This document shows, piece after piece, positions 1 through 6,413 of a stretch of 64,000 nucleotides of DNA; positions within the stretch are counted from its first letter, which is position 1, and every line of letters starts with the position of its first letter. Source of the stretch: Candidatus Bathyarchaeia archaeon (GTDB lineage: Archaea > Thermoproteota > Bathyarchaeia > Bathyarchaeales > Bathycorpusculaceae). The stretch covers positions 25,436 to 89,435 of the forward strand of contig JBEKTQ010000015.1 in the NCBI GenBank assembly GCA_049515895.1, read 5' to 3'. Under the pieces are notes generated by a model. The model worked only from the letters and a program-made list of their open reading frames with translations. It was not told where the DNA came from and did not search any database. Position numbers and translations under genes: made by a program.

Positions 1-529
1 TACGGTTATTGGTCCGAACACCCCAGGAATCATCACTCCCGGTGAATGCAAGCTTGGAATAATGCCAGCCGACGTTTTTGCGTCCGGCGGCGTAGGTTTG
101 GTCTCAAGAAGCGGTACACTCACATACGAAATAGCCGCTGGGCTTACAGCCAAGGGTTTCGGGCAGTCAACCTGCGTCGGCGTCGGTGGCGACCCCGTCG
201 CGGGCTTAAACTTCATTGAGGCCCTAGAACTGTTTAATGCTGACTCGAAAACGAAGGCTGTGGTTCTAATCGGCGAAATCGGTGGCAACATGGAAGAGCT
301 AACGGCACAGTACATTGCCCAGACACACTATCCTAAGCCGGTTGTGGCTTACGTGGCTGGCCGTTTTGCACCAGAAGGCAAGCGCATGGGCCACGCGGGA
401 GCTATCATAACGGGTAAGCAGGGGACGGCCCAAAGCAAGATTGACGCGTTTTCAAGCGTTGGAGTGAAGGTTGCTGAAATGCCAAGCGATGTTGCAGCTT
501 TGTTGATCAATGAACTTGGGCATCCCTAA
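1..529 (+). CDS. sucD: Succinyl-CoA synthetase alpha subunit (5' truncated by window edge)
   Basis: Frame open from window start (IGPNTPGII), [27 protein letters not shown], phospho-His motif RMGHAGA. Confidence 0.95.
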
Positions 530-631: not shown

Positions 632-1618
632 TTGAGCAGTTTTTTAGAGCGAGACGTTTTTATGAGCCAGAATAACTCCAGAAAAATTAGTTCCGAAGAC
701 CTTAAGCAGTTCGATGGGTCAAATGGAAAACCTTTATACGTTGTTTTCAAGGGCAAAATATACGACTTGACAACCAGCCAGCTTTGGCTTGAAGGCAAAC
801 ACATGGGCATGCACGGCAGAACCGACGATTTAACTGAAGCAATAAAAACCGCTCCGCATGGCGAAGACAACGTTTACAGATTCCCGATTGTCGGCGAAAT
901 TGCCGAAGCGGTTATGCAGGCTCCAGTTGCCACGCCTGCAGTGGAAAAGCCTGTTGAGCCCCAAGTTCAGCCCGTAATCGGCACTTCTCCCGCAGTCATG
1001 GAGAGACGCACGTTCCTAAAGCTGGCAGCGGCGGCGGGAGGAGCAATAACGATCGCGGCACTGTTTTCAACCCTAAAAGCTGGAACTTTTGTGCCACCGC
1101 CGACCGCAACAGCAGCTTGGCCTGTGGTCACCGTTACAAACATAGGTAAGTTGACAAATCTCACACCAATAGTGTTCTATTACCCTTTAACCAGCACACC
1201 GAATTACCTTGTTAAGTTAGGGGTGGCAGCCACAGGTGGCATCGGACCTGAAAAAGACATAGTGGCCTTCAGCGCGATTTGCCAGCACTTGGGATGCGAG
1301 TACGGTTTCGTGGCTCCAGGCGGCTCACCACCCTGCAACTCCGCTTATAAGGTGGCTATTCCTATGGGCTACTGCTGCTGCCACGGCTCACAGTACGATT
1401 TCGTTCGTGGCGCGAAGGTGATTGGAGGCCCAGCTCCACGACCTGTGCCTATGGTTCAACTACAACTGAATTCAGCAACAGGAGATATAACCGCTGTTGG
1501 GATGCAGTCGCCAACGATTTTTGGGCATGGGCCGCCTGGAACCATGGATCCCGCGTTGGTTATGCAGTATGATTTGCAGGGTGGAGATTTAGTGACGCAA
1601 TCCACTGTTTTGGGATGA
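632..1618 (+). CDS. Fusion: cytochrome b5-like heme domain + internal twin-arginine anchor + Rieske [2Fe-2S] domain (start may be ATG 662)
   Basis: N-term FDGSNGKPLYVVFKGKIYDLT...HMGMH...DLT...APHG (Cyt-b5-like); Pro-rich linker; MERRTFLK + hydrophobic helix; Rieske boxes CQHLGC and CCCHGSQYD. Confidence 0.9.
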   Translation: MSSFLERDVFMSQNNSRKISSEDLKQFDGSNGKPLYVVFKGKIYDLTTSQLWLEGKHMGMHGRTDDLTEAIKTAPHGEDNVYRFPIVGEIAEAVMQAPVATPAVEKPVEPQVQPVIGTSPAVMERRTFLKLAAAAGGAITIAALFSTLKAGTFVPPPTATAAWPVVTVTNIGKLTNLTPIVFYYPLTSTPNYLVKLGVAATGGIGPEKDIVAFSAICQHLGCEYGFVAPGGSPPCNSAYKVAIPMGYCCCHGSQYDFVRGAKVIGGPAPRPVPMVQLQLNSATGDITAVGMQSPTIFGHGPPGTMDPALVMQYDLQGGDLVTQSTVLG

Positions 1619-1619
1619 C

Positions 1620-3143
1620 TTGATTATGTCTGAAGAAATTGAGAAGAAGAATGCTTATGACAAACTTGTCGACTGGTTTGACGTGAAGTTCGGCTTCGCT
1701 AAGACTCCGCTTAAGCCGATTCCAGACTTTATGATGAACCCGATTTATTGGCTTGGCTTGCTGTTAGCGGTGACTTTCGGCTTGCAGGCTTTAACCGGGA
1801 TCTTCATGCTTCTCTACTACGTCCCCACGCCTGCCCAAGCCTTCTCGTCGACAGCATCGATTATCAGTTCGGTGCCTCTTGGCTCGCTTGTTGAAACCTT
1901 CCACCTGTACACCGCCTACGCCATGATTATCTTAATGTTTTTGCATTTGGTCCGCAACTTTTTCGGCAGCGCACATAAAGGCAACAGGGATTTGATGTGG
2001 CTTGTCGGAATCGTATTAGCCGTCGTGGTGATTAGCTTCGGCGTGACAGGGTACCTTTTGCCGTGGACGGTGATTTCTAAGTCTGCAAGCGACGTCGCCA
2101 TCGGATTCCTAAACTTCTTCCCGGTTGGAATTGCAAACCTGGGAAAGTTCGTGGCGGTAGGCTCCGGCAGCGATGCATCGGAGTTGACAACTTTCCTTCA
2201 CATCCACACCGTTTTCCTTCCATTGGCGTTGATCGGGCTTTTAGGGTTGAAGATTTACATGTACGAGGTCCACGGCCCAATGTATGTGCCAGCATACGGG
2301 AAACCTGGAAAAGGCAAGTACAATAATTGGTTCCCAAAAATCTTCCTCTACTTTGTCATGCTTGCAAGCGCTTACGTGGCGATTTTGCTGGCTGCATCTT
2401 CTCTTTTCCCGCTTTCCTTGCCGCCTGCATACTCCGCGGCCACAGCCGGTGCCTACGTCGTCCAGCCTGATTGGTATCTGCTTTGGGTTTATCAACTCTT
2501 GAAAATCCAAGTTTTTGAAGGACCCGCAGCAGCTTACTTGATAGCTGCGCTGATTGCTTTCGGAGTGCTTCTTTTCCTTATGCCTTTCTACGACCGAAGC
2601 AAACGAAGAAACATCAGCCAAAGACCAGTCTACACTACAATCGGCTCGGTGCTAATAATTGAGCTTATTACGCTAACCATTTGGGGATACTTGACTCCTG
2701 GAATAATAATCCCAGACTACCAAGCCGTTTTGGTTTTAGGCGGAGTAGCTGTCGCAACTATCGCTGTGATATGGGCCGTTTATAGAATTAGACGAAAAAC
2801 AAACGCAGCATCTATGCTGCCCGCGCAATCGACCACTAACTCCCTCTCAACCAACTCATCTGGAACGAGTCCTGCCTCCATAGTGCAGGCATCTGCTCAA
2901 CCTAAGAAACAAAGGGTCAAGCTAGCTGGTCAGAGCCTATTCAATCCGTTCACTGCTGTCTTCGCAATTTTCCTTGCGGTTGCATCAGTTTCTTTAGCAT
3001 CAGCCGTAAACATGCTACCCACCATCTTGGCGAACGGACCGTTTTTTGCCTTGGCTCTGAGCGCTTTTGCCGTTTCGTCTTTTTTCATGTGTCGGATGCT
3101 TCGGAAGTTTGTTTTATCGTATGAGGGAGCGGTGGCTAAATAA
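1620..3143 (+). CDS. Cytochrome b of a Rieske/cyt b complex (unsplit, extra C-terminal TM helices)
   Basis: Q-LTG-F-L-YY-P, helix B H-x13-H, TGYLLPW, Qo motif PDWY, PFYDR; directly follows the Rieske gene. Confidence 0.92.
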   Translation: MIMSEEIEKKNAYDKLVDWFDVKFGFAKTPLKPIPDFMMNPIYWLGLLLAVTFGLQALTGIFMLLYYVPTPAQAFSSTASIISSVPLGSLVETFHLYTAYAMIILMFLHLVRNFFGSAHKGNRDLMWLVGIVLAVVVISFGVTGYLLPWTVISKSASDVAIGFLNFFPVGIANLGKFVAVGSGSDASELTTFLHIHTVFLPLALIGLLGLKIYMYEVHGPMYVPAYGKPGKGKYNNWFPKIFLYFVMLASAYVAILLAASSLFPLSLPPAYSAATAGAYVVQPDWYLLWVYQLLKIQVFEGPAAAYLIAALIAFGVLLFLMPFYDRSKRRNISQRPVYTTIGSVLIIELITLTIWGYLTPGIIIPDYQAVLVLGGVAVATIAVIWAVYRIRRKTNAASMLPAQSTTNSLSTNSSGTSPASIVQASAQPKKQRVKLAGQSLFNPFTAVFAIFLAVASVSLASAVNMLPTILANGPFFALALSAFAVSSFFMCRMLRKFVLSYEGAVAK

Positions 3144-3796
3144 TGAAGCGTGACTTTGACTCTTTGCGTGTCACTGCCTATTTCCTTTTGGTTTTTCTAA
3201 TTGTTGTTGGAGTGGCAGTTTGGCTTTTGAACCTAATCAGTCAACAAAGGATTTTCGGTTTCTTGATGGGCGCTGAATTCGTTGCGTTCGCCATGCTCGT
3301 CTACCTTTTTTACATGGAAGACCCCGTAGCCGCCAAGAAAATATTATTCTCGGGGTTCGTTGCCTTAGGAATCCTAGTTGTATTAGCGGCTGCCGTTTTA
3401 GGAGGCATTGGTACACCTGCGACGTTGCCCAAACCCAATGTCTCAGTAACCCTCTACGCGGGGGAAGTTTCTCTTACACAGTACGGGTTCGGCAACGACG
3501 CAATCTCCATAACTTCGCCGGGTCCGACTTTAACCTTCACCGTTGGCGATGTTGTGAACATGACCGTTTTCAACGCGGGAACCATGCCTCATAATTGGGC
3601 GCTAGTCGCTTCCAAGGATACCTCAGGCAAAGTTCTGTTCGGCGCAGTAATCGACAGCGGTCAAGTCCCCATACCGCCTAACGAAACAGCATCGGTTGTT
3701 TTTAGAGTCACAAAATCGGGGAACTACTTCTACATTTGTCAGGTTGCGGGTCACGTTCAGTCAGGCATGTGGGGTAATGTGGTAGTGAATCCGTGA
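3143..3796 (+). CDS. Membrane-anchored blue copper protein (sulfocyanin/rusticyanin-like cupredoxin)
   Basis: Three N-terminal hydrophobic segments; PGPTL, type-1 Cu ligands HNW ... YICQVAGHVQSGM (H, C, H, M); TAATG overlap with cyt b. Confidence 0.88.
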   Translation: MKRDFDSLRVTAYFLLVFLIVVGVAVWLLNLISQQRIFGFLMGAEFVAFAMLVYLFYMEDPVAAKKILFSGFVALGILVVLAAAVLGGIGTPATLPKPNVSVTLYAGEVSLTQYGFGNDAISITSPGPTLTFTVGDVVNMTVFNAGTMPHNWALVASKDTSGKVLFGAVIDSGQVPIPPNETASVVFRVTKSGNYFYICQVAGHVQSGMWGNVVVNP

Positions 3797-4578
3797 CACA
3801 AAAAATCGCTGAAGAATTTTCTGCCTCGTGCCTATTTTTCTTTGCAAGCTTGCTCACTGGCCTAGTAAGCGTCATGGCGTTGAGTTTTGTTTGGGCAAAA
3901 CAAAGAGCCGAAAAGCAACTTGAACCCCAAAAAACAGCGGGTTTCCTTGCCAATGAGCAAAGAGCACTGAATTTTTACAAAATATTTTCCTTTGCCTACG
4001 ACATTTTGAACCCGTACCTGTATACTGATGCCATGCGCAGCGAAATTGTAAATCAAATCGAAAACGGCGCAAACCAGCGGGTGCTTGACGTCGGATGCGG
4101 AACAGGCTACACCACGTCAGGAGTTTTGAAGCGGAAAGACGTTTCGGAGGTTGTCGGTTTGGACATGAATCCCGTACAACTAAAAAGAGCCGTCAAGAAC
4201 CTGCACTCAGAAAAGGGGAGAACGCTTATTTCAAGAGGCGACGCGGACAACTTGCCGTTCATCGACTCGTCTTTCGACGCGGTAATTTCTGTTGGAGCCG
4301 TCGAGTATTTTCAAGACCCTGAAAAAACGGTGAAAGAGCTGACTAGGGTCGCAAGACCTGGTGGAACCGTGATTGTGGGCGGTCCTGAATCGAGATGGTT
4401 CAGCAAGTTTGCTTTAAACAGGGTTTTCTATACGCCCTCACCCGAGGAAATGGAGAGTATTTTCGGCAAAGCGGACCTTGTCAGGGTGAAATCCCACTTG
4501 ACGGGCGTGAAAACTTTTTTCGGAACAAACAAATACGTCGTGTTTGCAGTAGGGAAGAAACCAGAAAGCCCACGGTGA
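3793..4578 (+). CDS. SAM-dependent methyltransferase, UbiE/MenG/VTE3-like (probable quinone ring methylase)
   Basis: VLDVGCGTG motif I, GDADNLPF-D-SFDAV, LTRVARPGG; GTGA overlap with cupredoxin; next to menA. Confidence 0.75.
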   Translation: MTQKIAEEFSASCLFFFASLLTGLVSVMALSFVWAKQRAEKQLEPQKTAGFLANEQRALNFYKIFSFAYDILNPYLYTDAMRSEIVNQIENGANQRVLDVGCGTGYTTSGVLKRKDVSEVVGLDMNPVQLKRAVKNLHSEKGRTLISRGDADNLPFIDSSFDAVISVGAVEYFQDPEKTVKELTRVARPGGTVIVGGPESRWFSKFALNRVFYTPSPEEMESIFGKADLVRVKSHLTGVKTFFGTNKYVVFAVGKKPESPR

Positions 4579-4591
4579 AAGGCAGCGAAAC

Positions 4592-5623
4592 TTAAGCTCT
4601 TTTTCTTGTATTAAGCAGTGTCCAAGCTACCGGGGCATAAGCAGCCACCAACACCCCCAAGATGTAGGCGAGTTGAACTGGGTTGGCCATGTTCAAGATC
4701 CCTGCGACTGAGTAGCCTGCGATTAAACCGAAGCTGGTGACGCTGTGTGCCACTATCATATCGAGGTTAGCGGGAGCCATCAGCCGCGGGTTATCTTTAT
4801 GCGCCCGAACGACCCTGATCGAGCGGATCACGAGGGGCAGTGAGAGCAAAGCGAAAAGTGTGTAGAGCGGTATGATGCCCAGCAAAGCGGAAGCAACGAT
4901 TATGGCGTAAGTGCATATCCAACTCGCCACGTAAAGTTTGACGCCTGCCTCTTTGCCGTACCTTGCGACAAGCGTGAGTTTCCCGGCAGCCGTGTCCTCT
5001 GCGATATCGGGAATCTCGTTTATCACAATCATCGAGAACAGCATTACCCCCAAAGGCAAAGTCGCCAAAAACGCCTGCAGGGTCAGGGTTTGTGCTTGAA
5101 CGTAAAAGGCGCCTAAACCTATTATTGAGCCAAAATTCACCAGTAGGGCAAGCTCGCCCAGCCCGTGGTGGCTGAAGCTTATGGGTGGAGCGGTGTAGAA
5201 GACAGCGCAAAATACGCCGAATACCCCGAATGCCAAGATAGGTAAGCCCCGGGTTAACGTTAGGTATAACCCCACAGCCAAAGTGACTAGGTAGCAGAGC
5301 GTGAAAGCTTTAAACATGCTCCTAGGCGCCAGAAGCCCGTTGCTCAGGGTCCCGCTGCCGCCCGAATACGGGTTCTTCTCGCCCGGCCCAAGCGTGTCCA
5401 CGCTGTGCTTGTAGTCGAAGTAGTCGTCGGTCATGTTTAAGCCGATGTGATTGATGATAATGGCAACGAGCACAAGCAGAAAATAAAGCGGGGAAAACCC
5501 ACTTTTAGTTGCCCAGCTAACTAAGCCGCCTAGGACAGCGGGAAAGATGCTGGGAGGAACAAAGTGGTAGCGGAAGGCGAGCCACCAGACTTTCGCTTTA
5601 CTTGTTTTAGGTATGAACGTCAT
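4592..5623 (-). CDS. menA: 1,4-dihydroxy-2-naphthoate prenyltransferase (UbiA superfamily)
   Basis: NMTDDYFDYKHSVD, GGSG, FYTAPP, INEIPDIAEDTAAGKLTL motifs; multi-TM. Confidence 0.88.
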   Translation of the reverse strand: MTFIPKTSKAKVWWLAFRYHFVPPSIFPAVLGGLVSWATKSGFSPLYFLLVLVAIIINHIGLNMTDDYFDYKHSVDTLGPGEKNPYSGGSGTLSNGLLAPRSMFKAFTLCYLVTLAVGLYLTLTRGLPILAFGVFGVFCAVFYTAPPISFSHHGLGELALLVNFGSIIGLGAFYVQAQTLTLQAFLATLPLGVMLFSMIVINEIPDIAEDTAAGKLTLVARYGKEAGVKLYVASWICTYAIIVASALLGIIPLYTLFALLSLPLVIRSIRVVRAHKDNPRLMAPANLDMIVAHSVTSFGLIAGYSVAGILNMANPVQLAYILGVLVAAYAPVAWTLLNTRKRA

Positions 5624-5791: not shown

Positions 5792-6091
5792 CTATTGAGC
5801 CGCTTCTTGTGCTTTGCGTTTCCTGAAGAGGATGAACACGTGTCCTCTAACTTCAACCAACGCGGAATGGGTCTGCTCCGCGGCTTTAGACGCTATTGTC
5901 TGAGCCGTGTTACTTCCTTGCAAGGCTGCTGGCAAAATTCTGACCTTAACCATCTTGTTTTTCTCCAGTTGCTTTTCTATCTCTCCTGCGCACTGCTGGG
6001 TTAAGCCTTCTTTGCCGACCCAGATGGTTGGGTTCTCATCCTTAAGTACGTGCCTAACGTGACGTTTCATTCGTGTCTTTATTTTGCTCAA
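5792..6091 (-). CDS. yhbY: YhbY/CRM-domain RNA-binding protein
   Basis: PTIWVGKEGL, LEKNKMVKVR, LVEVRGHVFILFR; follows rpp21. Confidence 0.9.
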   Translation of the reverse strand: MSKIKTRMKRHVRHVLKDENPTIWVGKEGLTQQCAGEIEKQLEKNKMVKVRILPAALQGSNTAQTIASKAAEQTHSALVEVRGHVFILFRKRKAQEAAQ

Positions 6092-6413
6092 GATCCTCTT
6101 GCTCCTTTCTCTTTCTTAACATTATACGGATTTGATTGCCGCAGTTTAAGCAGGTTATTACAACATGAGGCTCCCTTTTCTGCTTTACCCTAAACCTACA
6201 ATTATAGCCTTGTACGAGCAGCGCATTGCATTTTTTGCATGTTTGTCTCCGAAAGTCAATGGGCACACGGATTCTTGCAGCCATGGCGATCCTTCGAGCA
6301 GATTTAACGTACTGCATGGCTAATTTAGGGTCACTTACAGAAACATTCTTTGCCTCATCAAACAATGTTTGAATCCGCTGCCTCGCTATTTGCTTAACGC
6401 TGGTTTGCCTCAT
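6054..6413 (-). CDS. rnp4: Ribonuclease P protein component 4 (Rpp21)
   Basis: IARQRIQTLF, ARRIAM, zinc ribbon CKKC...CLNCG. Confidence 0.93.
   Translation of the reverse strand: MRQTSVKQIARQRIQTLFDEAKNVSVSDPKLAMQYVKSARRIAMAARIRVPIDFRRQTCKKCNALLVQGYNCRFRVKQKREPHVVITCLNCGNQIRIMLRKRKEQEDLEQNKDTNETSR

Follow-up and report, generated by a model that had tools for sequence, protein, structure and literature searches.

The window analyzed here is a 64,000-nucleotide stretch of a Candidatus Bathyarchaeia archaeon genome, and close to its left end lies a cassette for a Rieske/cytochrome b complex together with putative quinone-finishing genes (Table 1). On the plus strand a Rieske protein with a fused cytochrome b5M domain, a cytochrome b, a cupredoxin and a SAM methyltransferase (SAM, S-adenosylmethionine) follow one another and converge on menA, a minus-strand gene for a MenA-like prenyltransferase. 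Pfam and NCBIfam domain calls along the five genes are Cyt-b5 plus TAT plus Rieske; cytochrome b N and C; cupredoxin; class I SAM methyltransferase; and UbiA/MenA-like. An earlier note, made from the letters alone, had described four tightly packed genes converging on menA, and the open reading frames (ORFs) lie where it placed them, with junctions of 1–13 bases. A single base separates the Rieske stop codon from the TTG at 1620 that opens the cytochrome b ORF (an ATG follows at 1626), the cytochrome b and cupredoxin ORFs overlap by 1 base, the cupredoxin and methyltransferase ORFs overlap by 4 bases (GTGA), and the converging stops of the methyltransferase and menA are 13 bases apart. The likely start of the Rieske gene is the ATG at 662, since relatives' proteins begin MS.. 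at that point. Third-position GC content of the cassette genes is about that of the flanking genes, with menA somewhat higher.

The host genome is a 3.18-Mb draft in 53 contigs, rated 100% complete and 4.87% contaminated, and the window is part of its contig C15. The note's bathyarchaeial host is borne out by related loci, 12/12 of which come from Bathyarchaeia or Bathyarchaeota. A chimeric contig joined between sucD and yhbY was considered and ruled out, since the gene order sucC-sucD-Rieske-cytb-cupredoxin-methyltransferase-menA-yhbY-rpr2-rfbD is identical in four other genomes (L056-L059).

Table 1. Features of the cassette and its surroundings, followed by features at other loci (given as locus or genome and contig, then positions)
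Feature	Position	Strand	Basis or remark
Rieske protein with N-terminal cytochrome b5M, Pro-rich linker, twin-arginine anchor and [2Fe-2S] head	662..1618	+	PF00173, PF10518, PF00355; ORF 632-1618
Cytochrome b5M domain	662..910	+	phmmer E 7e-17 and 1.5e-16 to 6VZ6/6NZX
Twin-arginine motif ERRTFLK and membrane anchor	998..1066	+	TIGR01409 above cut-off
Rieske boxes C207-H209-C212 and C238-C240-H241, with Ser243/Tyr245	1280..1396	+	motif reading, relatives' alignment
Unsplit cytochrome b, ~10 membrane helices	1626..3143	+	Pfam, NCBIfam, alignments, structure model; ORF 1620-3143
Lys209 (AAG), position of second His ligand of heme bH	2250..2252	+	ungapped alignment to cytochrome b6 7r0w
Qo motif PDWY	2466-2477	+	P, W, Y in 121/121 rows, D in 117
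3-helix membrane domain (residues 1-95) and type-1 copper cupredoxin	3143..3796	+	PF00127 above cut-off; ORF 3143-3796
SAM methyltransferase, one N-terminal membrane helix	3793..4578	+	PF01209 E 2e-13; ORF 3793-4578
MenA-like prenyltransferase	4592..5623	-	ten best NCBIfam rows MenA-type or related prenyltransferase models; ORF 5623-4592
Left flank, end of sucD	1..529	+	further upstream on contig: sucC, sdhAB, citrate synthase, flavin mononucleotide (FMN) dehydrogenase, polyprenyl synthase
Right flank, yhbY and rpr2	5792..6413	-	whole respiratory block sits between yhbY and rps19e
rfb genes, then long low-GC stretch	6468-45000		33-39% GC at ~16-35 kb
RnfD-iron-sulfur (FeS) fusion; FeS copy	L172:11658-13043; G000:C15:11920-12186
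Anchorless SdhAB	L001:11064-13524; L214-L227
Rubredoxin fused to FMN-dependent dehydrogenase and to thiamine pyrophosphate (TPP) enzyme	L001:13521-14807; L062:7323-9080		homologue on G000 C2
Oxidase subunit I	L004:10129-11865		A1-type GHPEVY and D-channel residues
Cupredoxin-like gene of cox operon	L004:12912-13442		copper Cys/His ligands replaced
Stand-alone cytochrome b, four His	L054:8371-9489		genome G382

Cytochrome b, Rieske and cupredoxin subunits

A structure model of the cytochrome b (pLDDT 89.7, pTM 0.82; the model contains no heme) returned Foldseek top matches that are all complex III structures, and a cytochrome b fold thus adjoins the Rieske gene. His93, His107 and His194 are retained, and the fourth heme-ligand position, a His in four-His Rieske/cytochrome b complexes, is Lys209, which lies inside helix 183-216 of the model. 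An alignment of the query with its 120 top-ranking homologues, out of 434, has Lys at this column in 121/121 rows and His107, the partner ligand, in every row covering that position. In a phylum-wide alignment, 49/83 rows have Lys and 34/83 have His. Such conservation excludes a sequencing error as the source of Lys209. An invariant Lys opposite a retained His favors heme ligation, and on the alignments we judge it likely that Lys209 ligates heme bH.

Precedents come from two papers (here and below, articles cited by PMC number and bioRxiv 2021.11.17.468889 were available in part, and what we take from them is limited to those parts). The Rhodobacter substitution H212K keeps a low-spin heme bH at +50 mV and working catalysis; it arose as a functional revertant of a heme knock-out, and its authors wrote that natural His/Lys cases still awaited identification (PMC4807273). 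Pyrobaculum cytochrome b is without the second His of heme bH, which was inferred to mean heme loss, and Fig. S3 of that paper shows Lys at this position (PMC4122944). The literature we searched, which covered few subscription journals, held no natural His-Lys cytochrome b beyond these two papers. The invariant Lys makes the existence of natural His/Lys hemes in membrane cytochromes b directly testable, and its conservation challenges the view that such proteins lost heme bH. The Qo motif of the host protein, PDWY, is associated with menaquinone (PMC4122944). A stand-alone four-His cytochrome b was also seen in genome G382, with no Qo motif or Rieske neighbor detected.

The solved chains closest to the Rieske protein are AioB, SoxF, 6VZ6 and 6NZX. 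Both [2Fe-2S] boxes are present behind a twin-arginine (Tat) anchor, whose ERRTFLK is the sole Tat-like motif that a pattern search found outside contig C52. Under the signature scheme of PMC4122944, Ser243 and Tyr245 predict a high-potential Rieske center. His47 and His66 of the N-terminal domain align with the axial ligands His42/His61 of the archaeal b5M structures 6VZ6 and 6NZX (ligands from bioRxiv 2021.11.30.470528), which places it among b5M domains; its score against Pfam Cyt-b5 is 21.1, under the cut-off of 23.7. The His pattern is kept in all 11 fused relatives listed, and the fusion occurs in 12/13 genomes with the gene on a contig, the 13th being a frameshift-rich assembly. Since the b5M domain precedes the Tat anchor, it is predicted to face the cytoplasm. 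In a search of 1.84 billion representatives, one match only among the best 150 of 1699 covered both b5M and Rieske, and the 19 matches inspected include same-protein fragments and b5M fused to other membrane domains. A keyword search of the available part of bioRxiv 2021.11.17.468889 found no mention of Rieske. The fusion could offer a possible first physiological partner for prokaryotic MAPR relatives.

The type-1 copper ligands of the cupredoxin (His150, Cys199, His204 and Met209) are kept in 13/13 full-length alignment rows. Its residues 1-95 are homologous to a stand-alone gene of 86-94 aa directly after cytochrome b in six loci of other families, which is also found in one locus of the host's clade (L065); this 3-helix protein has no Pfam family, and an atlas search gave no informative family. 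A complex prediction for the cupredoxin N-domain with cytochrome b scored 0.45 versus 0.00 for the best of three controls, with contact agreement of at least 73% and partner pLDDT of at least 65. The mark applied is reached by 116/157 solved and 2/215 mismatched pairs, 18 of the solved pairs and both mismatches lying at 0.60 or below, and the prediction lends weak support to a contact between the two proteins. The membrane-fused cupredoxin is a likely stand-in for cytochrome c1.

No cytochrome c maturation protein (PF01578) was found in the host genome, and among its 26 CxxCH ORFs two resemble cytochromes c by eye, both on contig C52 (2.7 kb, 55% GC, bacterial-looking). A cytochrome bc1 complex in the strict sense, with cytochrome c1 and c-type maturation, was therefore not found. 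The earlier note had proposed a complex with a blue copper carrier and neither cytochrome c1 nor any c-type cytochrome, and both parts of this description hold. The Rieske, cytochrome b6 and cytochrome c genes of contig C52 look bacterial, and the contig is likely bin contamination; a second cytochrome b match on it was excluded as a likely contaminant. Contigs C48, C50, C51 and C53 are likewise short, with 55-61% GC.

Electron input, cofactor supply and terminal oxidase

Searches of targeted families and motifs recognized no standard quinone reductase in the host. A Nuo-like operon was rejected as complex I and is read as a hydrogenase, since both NiFe CxxC motifs, as described for the Hfo hydrogenase (PMC7886697), are kept. 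SdhA and SdhB pass their cut-offs, and an SdhC/D anchor over cut-off was found in 0/23 genomes of the host's family versus 6/6 of family f33. A motif screen, with 66 Rossmann and 35 ferredoxin-type ORFs inspected visually and some of them checked in Pfam, gave no clear NDH-2, SQR, GlpD or ETF-QO. SdhB is present in 8/8 cassette genomes, and b5M was considered as the partner of the anchorless succinate dehydrogenase (SDH); this co-occurrence is not specific, so the partnership was kept as weak. Electron entry by a cytoplasmic b5M would suit genome G095, where no SDH anchor was found and a separate b5 gene adjoins the cluster. Heme ci of the b6f complex offers an analogy for such entry at the Qi side.

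Several further redox genes were seen in these genomes. An RnfD-like membrane protein with a fused C-terminal FeS domain has no other rnf genes beside it, and a stand-alone FeS part, 57% identical to the fused one, adjoins rps19e at the edge of the respiratory block. Anchorless SdhAB occur in many family genomes, often beside a fumarase/aspartase-like gene. Proteins that join rubredoxin to an FMN-dependent dehydrogenase or a TPP enzyme are possible soluble electron donors.

The putative quinone-finishing genes differ in how closely they match known families. The MenA-like protein scores 100.1 against TIGR00751 (cut-off 102.15) and has two Asp-rich motifs, which we take to be those of UbiA and which recur in 119 and 115 of 120 homologues. 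The methyltransferase stays below the cut-offs of the MenG/UbiE models TIGR01934 (65.8 bits, cut-off 158.35) and PRK00216, a search of solved structures returned generic methyltransferases only, and its homologues are named UbiE/MenG or MPBQ/MSBQ methyltransferase in their sources. Context and these names make it a likely quinone ring C-methylase; because the score is far below the MenG cut-off and four of 14 informative genomes have no such gene at the cassette, MenG itself is just a likelihood. As candidates for the last two menaquinone steps, the MenA-like protein has MenA-type models ranking first, at a score two bits under the cut-off, and the methyltransferase falls well short of MenG.

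The searches revealed no pathway for making the naphthoquinone ring. MqnA/D and MenB were not detected in the host, and MenD gave matches far below cut-off only; five relatives gave the same picture (MqnA/D 0/5, MenB over cut-off 0/5). The weak matches in the host were rejected as MenD, one of them being the rubredoxin-TPP enzyme. Finishing a scavenged head group is then the natural reading, as the earlier note had suggested for 1,4-dihydroxy-2-naphthoate (DHNA). For the Bathyarchaeia of PMC11697101, the available part reports no known quinone pathway.

Heme synthesis is equally hard to detect. Hidden Markov model searches of the host genome found no HemB, ChdC or AhbA/B. Neither a congener's hemA, hemB, hemC, hemD, cobA and sirC nor hemE, chdC and hemH of family f33 found a tblastn match in the host; these queries presumably bear the right names, which we assigned from motifs and gene order. 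HemB went undetected in 7/8 cassette genomes versus 3/17 congeners without the cassette, in a comparison of drafts among kin that are not independent, and one of the HemB-negative cassette genomes has 97% completeness in 5 contigs. AhbD-like matches were discarded as an uninformative marker, with none over cut-off in 35 genomes. Other heme users in the host are a peroxidase and two free b5M proteins. The draft genome thus displays complete respiratory proteins with no heme or ring synthesis detected, as in lactic acid bacteria.

Genome-wide searches for a heme-copper oxidase and for Tat genes found a CuA oxidase operon and TatC. The statement that the cassette has no terminal acceptor is right for the window; the operon lies on contig C18 and comprises coxB, A, C, D, a cupredoxin-like gene, ctaB and an intact cupredoxin. 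Its CuA, GHPEVY, HH and HFH ligands are intact. COX1 is present in 6/8 cassette genomes of the family versus 8/200 sampled family genomes over the cut-off, TatC in 8/8 cassette genomes versus 0/17 congeners without a cytochrome b match, and CdhC in 23/23 family genomes tested versus 0/6 f33 genomes. Other oxidase loci were noted as well: a second, distant heme-copper oxidase subunit I, 24-25% identical to that of the host, occurs at L198, L199, L200 and L208 in G229, G498, G328 and G525, and in G175, G382, G442 and G371 (L193, L194, L195 and L196) tatA/tatC, a Tat-exported two-subunit GMC-type dehydrogenase, cupredoxins and a cox operon lie together. Three of the latter four genomes have no orthologue of the host's cytochrome b.

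That Bathyarchaeia are mostly anaerobic and without quinone respiration, a premise of the earlier note, needs qualification: O2-respiration genes of some are in print (PMC10321748, PMC12296737), and O2-related potential is described in others (PMC12694404, PMC12296737). Cytochrome c oxidases were reported as exclusive to Houtuousia, which lost the Wood-Ljungdahl pathway (PMC10321748), and a keyword search of the available part of that paper's supplement found no mention of petB, Rieske, menA, coxA or K00412. O2 respiration in Bathyarchaeia is thus not new; complexes III and IV beside acetyl-CoA synthase were not found in the literature searched.

Distribution, interpretation and alternatives

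We surveyed the cassette in 15 genomes, each counted once. menA is part of the locus in 12/15, and two more have it at another genomic site; a methylase gene comes after the cupredoxin gene in 10 genomes but not in 4, the 15th contig being too short to show this position. A polyprenyl synthase is directly upstream of the cassette or one gene away in 8/15 genomes, and at L036 just six genes fill the interval from rps19e to yhbY: polyprenyl synthase, Rieske, cytochrome b, cupredoxin, methylase and menA. The host interval additionally holds tricarboxylic acid cycle genes, and its polyprenyl synthase lies 12.6 kb upstream. The cassette is therefore not self-contained as the note had it, since this synthase also belongs to it. 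Rieske/cytochrome b genes adjoin cox genes at L042, L043 and L064.

Full-length cytochrome b orthologues occur in 7/103 other genomes of the host's family (3/40 in its genus), along with one distant homologue. In a quick tree of 60 rows, built after thinning by 21 rows and removal of rows shorter than 380 aa, a single branch (support 100) holds the family copies; it sits among those of family f33 and adjoins one f24 genome. Branching order within the family's branch tracks genera, so an ancient gain followed by numerous losses is as good an explanation as repeated transfer. The idea of a portable module accordingly keeps its patchy distribution and differing sites, and loses support from a tree that follows genera and from the lack of any mobility genes seen. 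To the right of the cassette, the low-GC region after the rfb genes is probably a surface-polysaccharide cluster unrelated to it.

Taken together, these sequence comparisons show that the cassette encodes a conserved, cytochrome-c-free variant of the archaeal Rieske/cytochrome b complex, which probably lets an otherwise anaerobic host respire O2 facultatively, with heme and DHNA scavenged from its surroundings. The DHNA would be converted to a menaquinone by the polyprenyl synthase, the MenA-like enzyme and the methylase, and the quinol would be oxidized at the PDWY site. One electron would pass from the Rieske center to the tethered cupredoxin, to one or more free cupredoxins, to CuA and to O2; the second would reach heme bH, with its His/Lys ligation, by way of heme bL and so keep the Q-cycle running. 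In a cell that has neither complex I nor an anchored succinate dehydrogenase, the cytoplasmic b5M heme would let soluble flavoenzymes or ferredoxin deliver further electrons to the Qi side. This last step is the weakest of the proposal, and we advance it tentatively.

A number of observations weigh against this scheme. On the supply side, 4/14 informative genomes have no methylase next to the cassette, the cofactor absences come from drafts, where the clustered hem/cob genes can all drop out of an assembly together, and no heme or DHNA importer was identified, no search aimed at importers having been made. Cassette genome G383 has HemB and AhbA/B, so that auxotrophy would not be obligatory. 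On the input side, four NapH-like membrane ferredoxins and the RnfD-FeS fusion could reduce quinone in place of b5M; against a specific b5M-SDH link, 6 congeners lacking the cassette also have full-length anchorless SdhB, and none was found in G095. The Ser/Tyr signature predicts a high potential, unlike that of bacterial PDWY complexes; haloarchaea do pair the high-potential signature with menaquinone (PMC3509893). On the oxidase side, the K-channel Lys is not evident by eye, heme A synthase was not found in the host genome (heme O synthase is present), COX1 was not seen in 2/8 cassette genomes (95% and 87% complete), and that of cassette genome G328 is of the distant type.

The alternative that survives best concerns the b5M entry step alone and is compatible with the remaining chain: b5M would be a heme store or chaperone passing scavenged heme to cytochrome b, with NapH-like or RnfD-like membrane proteins reducing quinone. 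Electron carriers typically bury a bis-His heme, and G383 and G095 can make tetrapyrroles yet retain a fused or adjacent b5M. The frequent failure to detect HemB (7/8 cassette genomes), the candidate membrane FeS proteins and the fact that a redox partner for b5M proteins was not established in bioRxiv 2021.11.30.470528 nonetheless argue for a store, and we rate it as doubtful but worth keeping in mind. Less probable is a complex with heme bL only and no Q-cycle, in which Lys209 does not bind iron and the chain, conserving little energy, is an O2-scavenging electron sink that shields the oxygen-sensitive enzymes of the Wood-Ljungdahl pathway. For Pyrobaculum, this Lys was interpreted as loss of heme bH (PMC4122944), a point that also counts against our own scheme, and the host keeps CO dehydrogenase/acetyl-CoA synthase and Hfo with no standard quinone reductase found. 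However, a Lys this invariant (121/121; 49/83 phylum-wide) opposite an always retained His107 is hard to explain for an empty site, and H212K was recovered as a functional revertant of a heme knock-out (PMC4807273).

An ordinary, self-sufficient facultative aerobe, in which the host makes heme and quinone ring with genes lost from the assembly or with unrecognized enzymes, strikes us as improbable. The genome is a 53-contig draft with clustered hem/cob genes, and the one f33 genome tested is likewise without MqnA/D or MenB over cut-off, so an unrecognized ring pathway is possible; against this, the host is rated 100% complete and HemB is undetected in seven separate cassette genomes, among them the 97%-complete one in 5 contigs. 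More improbable still is a non-oxygen acceptor or a reverse flow in which cupredoxins, fed by an exported dehydrogenase, reduce quinone and b5M. Relatives do have the Tat-exported GMC-type dehydrogenase beside cupredoxins and oxidase, and no oxidase was seen in two of the eight cassette genomes, but that dehydrogenase has no match in the host, host cupredoxins match only one another within the genome, and PDWY is not the reverse-flow motif (PMC4122944). A decaying relic or assembly artefact, which patchy distribution and missing cofactor pathways might suggest, is barely credible and already largely refuted by conservation: frames are open, ligands intact at 62-88% identity in 15 genomes, and gene order is conserved.

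A bolder version of the favored respiratory scheme, which we think unlikely, is a self-priming complex III in which b5M feeds the His/Lys heme bH, the enzyme's own menaquinone is both reduced and oxidized by it, and all heme and quinone rings are scavenged. If true, it would need no complex I or II in a Wood-Ljungdahl archaeon, would provide a natural His/Lys transmembrane heme as predicted in 2016, and would be an archaeal cofactor-dependent respiration, which we did not find described in the literature searched. The ingredients are each precedented; that literature did not mention their combination, the fusion with b5M or a His/Lys interpretation, though genome papers may hold an earlier mention. 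Lys209, the b5M fusion and the cupredoxin-3-helix fusion go beyond the first reading of this DNA, which had also missed the lack of detectable heme synthesis and of a standard quinone reductase. Bathyarchaeia are abundant and mostly treated as anaerobes. If a subset that keeps acetyl-CoA synthase can switch to O2 on its neighbors' heme and DHNA, models of oxic-anoxic boundaries would change, and heme and DHNA would be cheap culture supplements for Bathyarchaeia.

Comparison with known systems

Among characterized complexes, the host system shares with SoxC, SoxG and SoxN of Sulfolobales, which work with SoxL/SoxF and sulfocyanin SoxE, an unsplit cytochrome b, the lack of c1, a blue copper acceptor and a SoxF-like Rieske protein (1jm1). 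It is not of the Sulfolobales SoxC/SoxL type: cytochrome b scores 211.5 bits against NF041076 (E 2.5e-62, cut-off 740) and the Rieske protein 66.2 bits against TIGR03171 (cut-off 582). Sulfolobales cytochrome b keeps four His and branches separately (taking family f53 to be Sulfolobales), whereas the host has Lys209, the b5M fusion, a membrane-fused cupredoxin and MenA-type genes. Pyrobaculum/Thermoproteus cytochrome b has Lys in the same column (PMC4122944, suppl. Fig. S3) but a PPWP rather than PDWY Qo motif and ~26% identity for a comparable row; no b5M fusion is reported in the available part, and heme loss was the interpretation. The Rhodobacter capsulatus bc1 H212K enzyme (PMC4807273) has the same His-to-Lys exchange at the same ligand position, but it is an engineered ubiquinone/cytochrome c1 enzyme, whereas ligation in the host is predicted.

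Blue copper replaces cytochrome c also in the complex III of Nitrososphaerales and Ca. Angelarchaeales, with its plastocyanin-like partner (PMC9038741), and a blue copper protein is encoded with the complex in the haloarchaeal halocyanin-Rieske/cytochrome b cluster (PMC3509893). In contrast to all three, the host cupredoxin is fused to a lineage-specific 3-helix protein, and the complex I-like and four-subunit SDH inputs of Nitrososphaerales and Ca. Angelarchaeales were not found in the host. Within Bathyarchaeia, Houtuousia likewise have a heme-copper oxidase but lost the Wood-Ljungdahl pathway (PMC10321748), whereas the host has both pathway and oxidase. Family f33, which holds the nearest cytochrome b relatives, would fit Houtuousia (CdhC 0/6, COX1 6/6) and differs from the host in its SDH anchors, HemB in 4/6 genomes and lack of the b5M fusion. 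Finally, Streptococcus agalactiae and lactic acid bacteria carry respiratory genes without heme or ring synthesis, and DHNA can serve as quinone precursor in their heme- and quinone-dependent respiration (PMC11220326). They use NDH-2 and cytochrome bd where the host would use complex III and a heme-copper oxidase, and the parallel is one of analogy, not homology.

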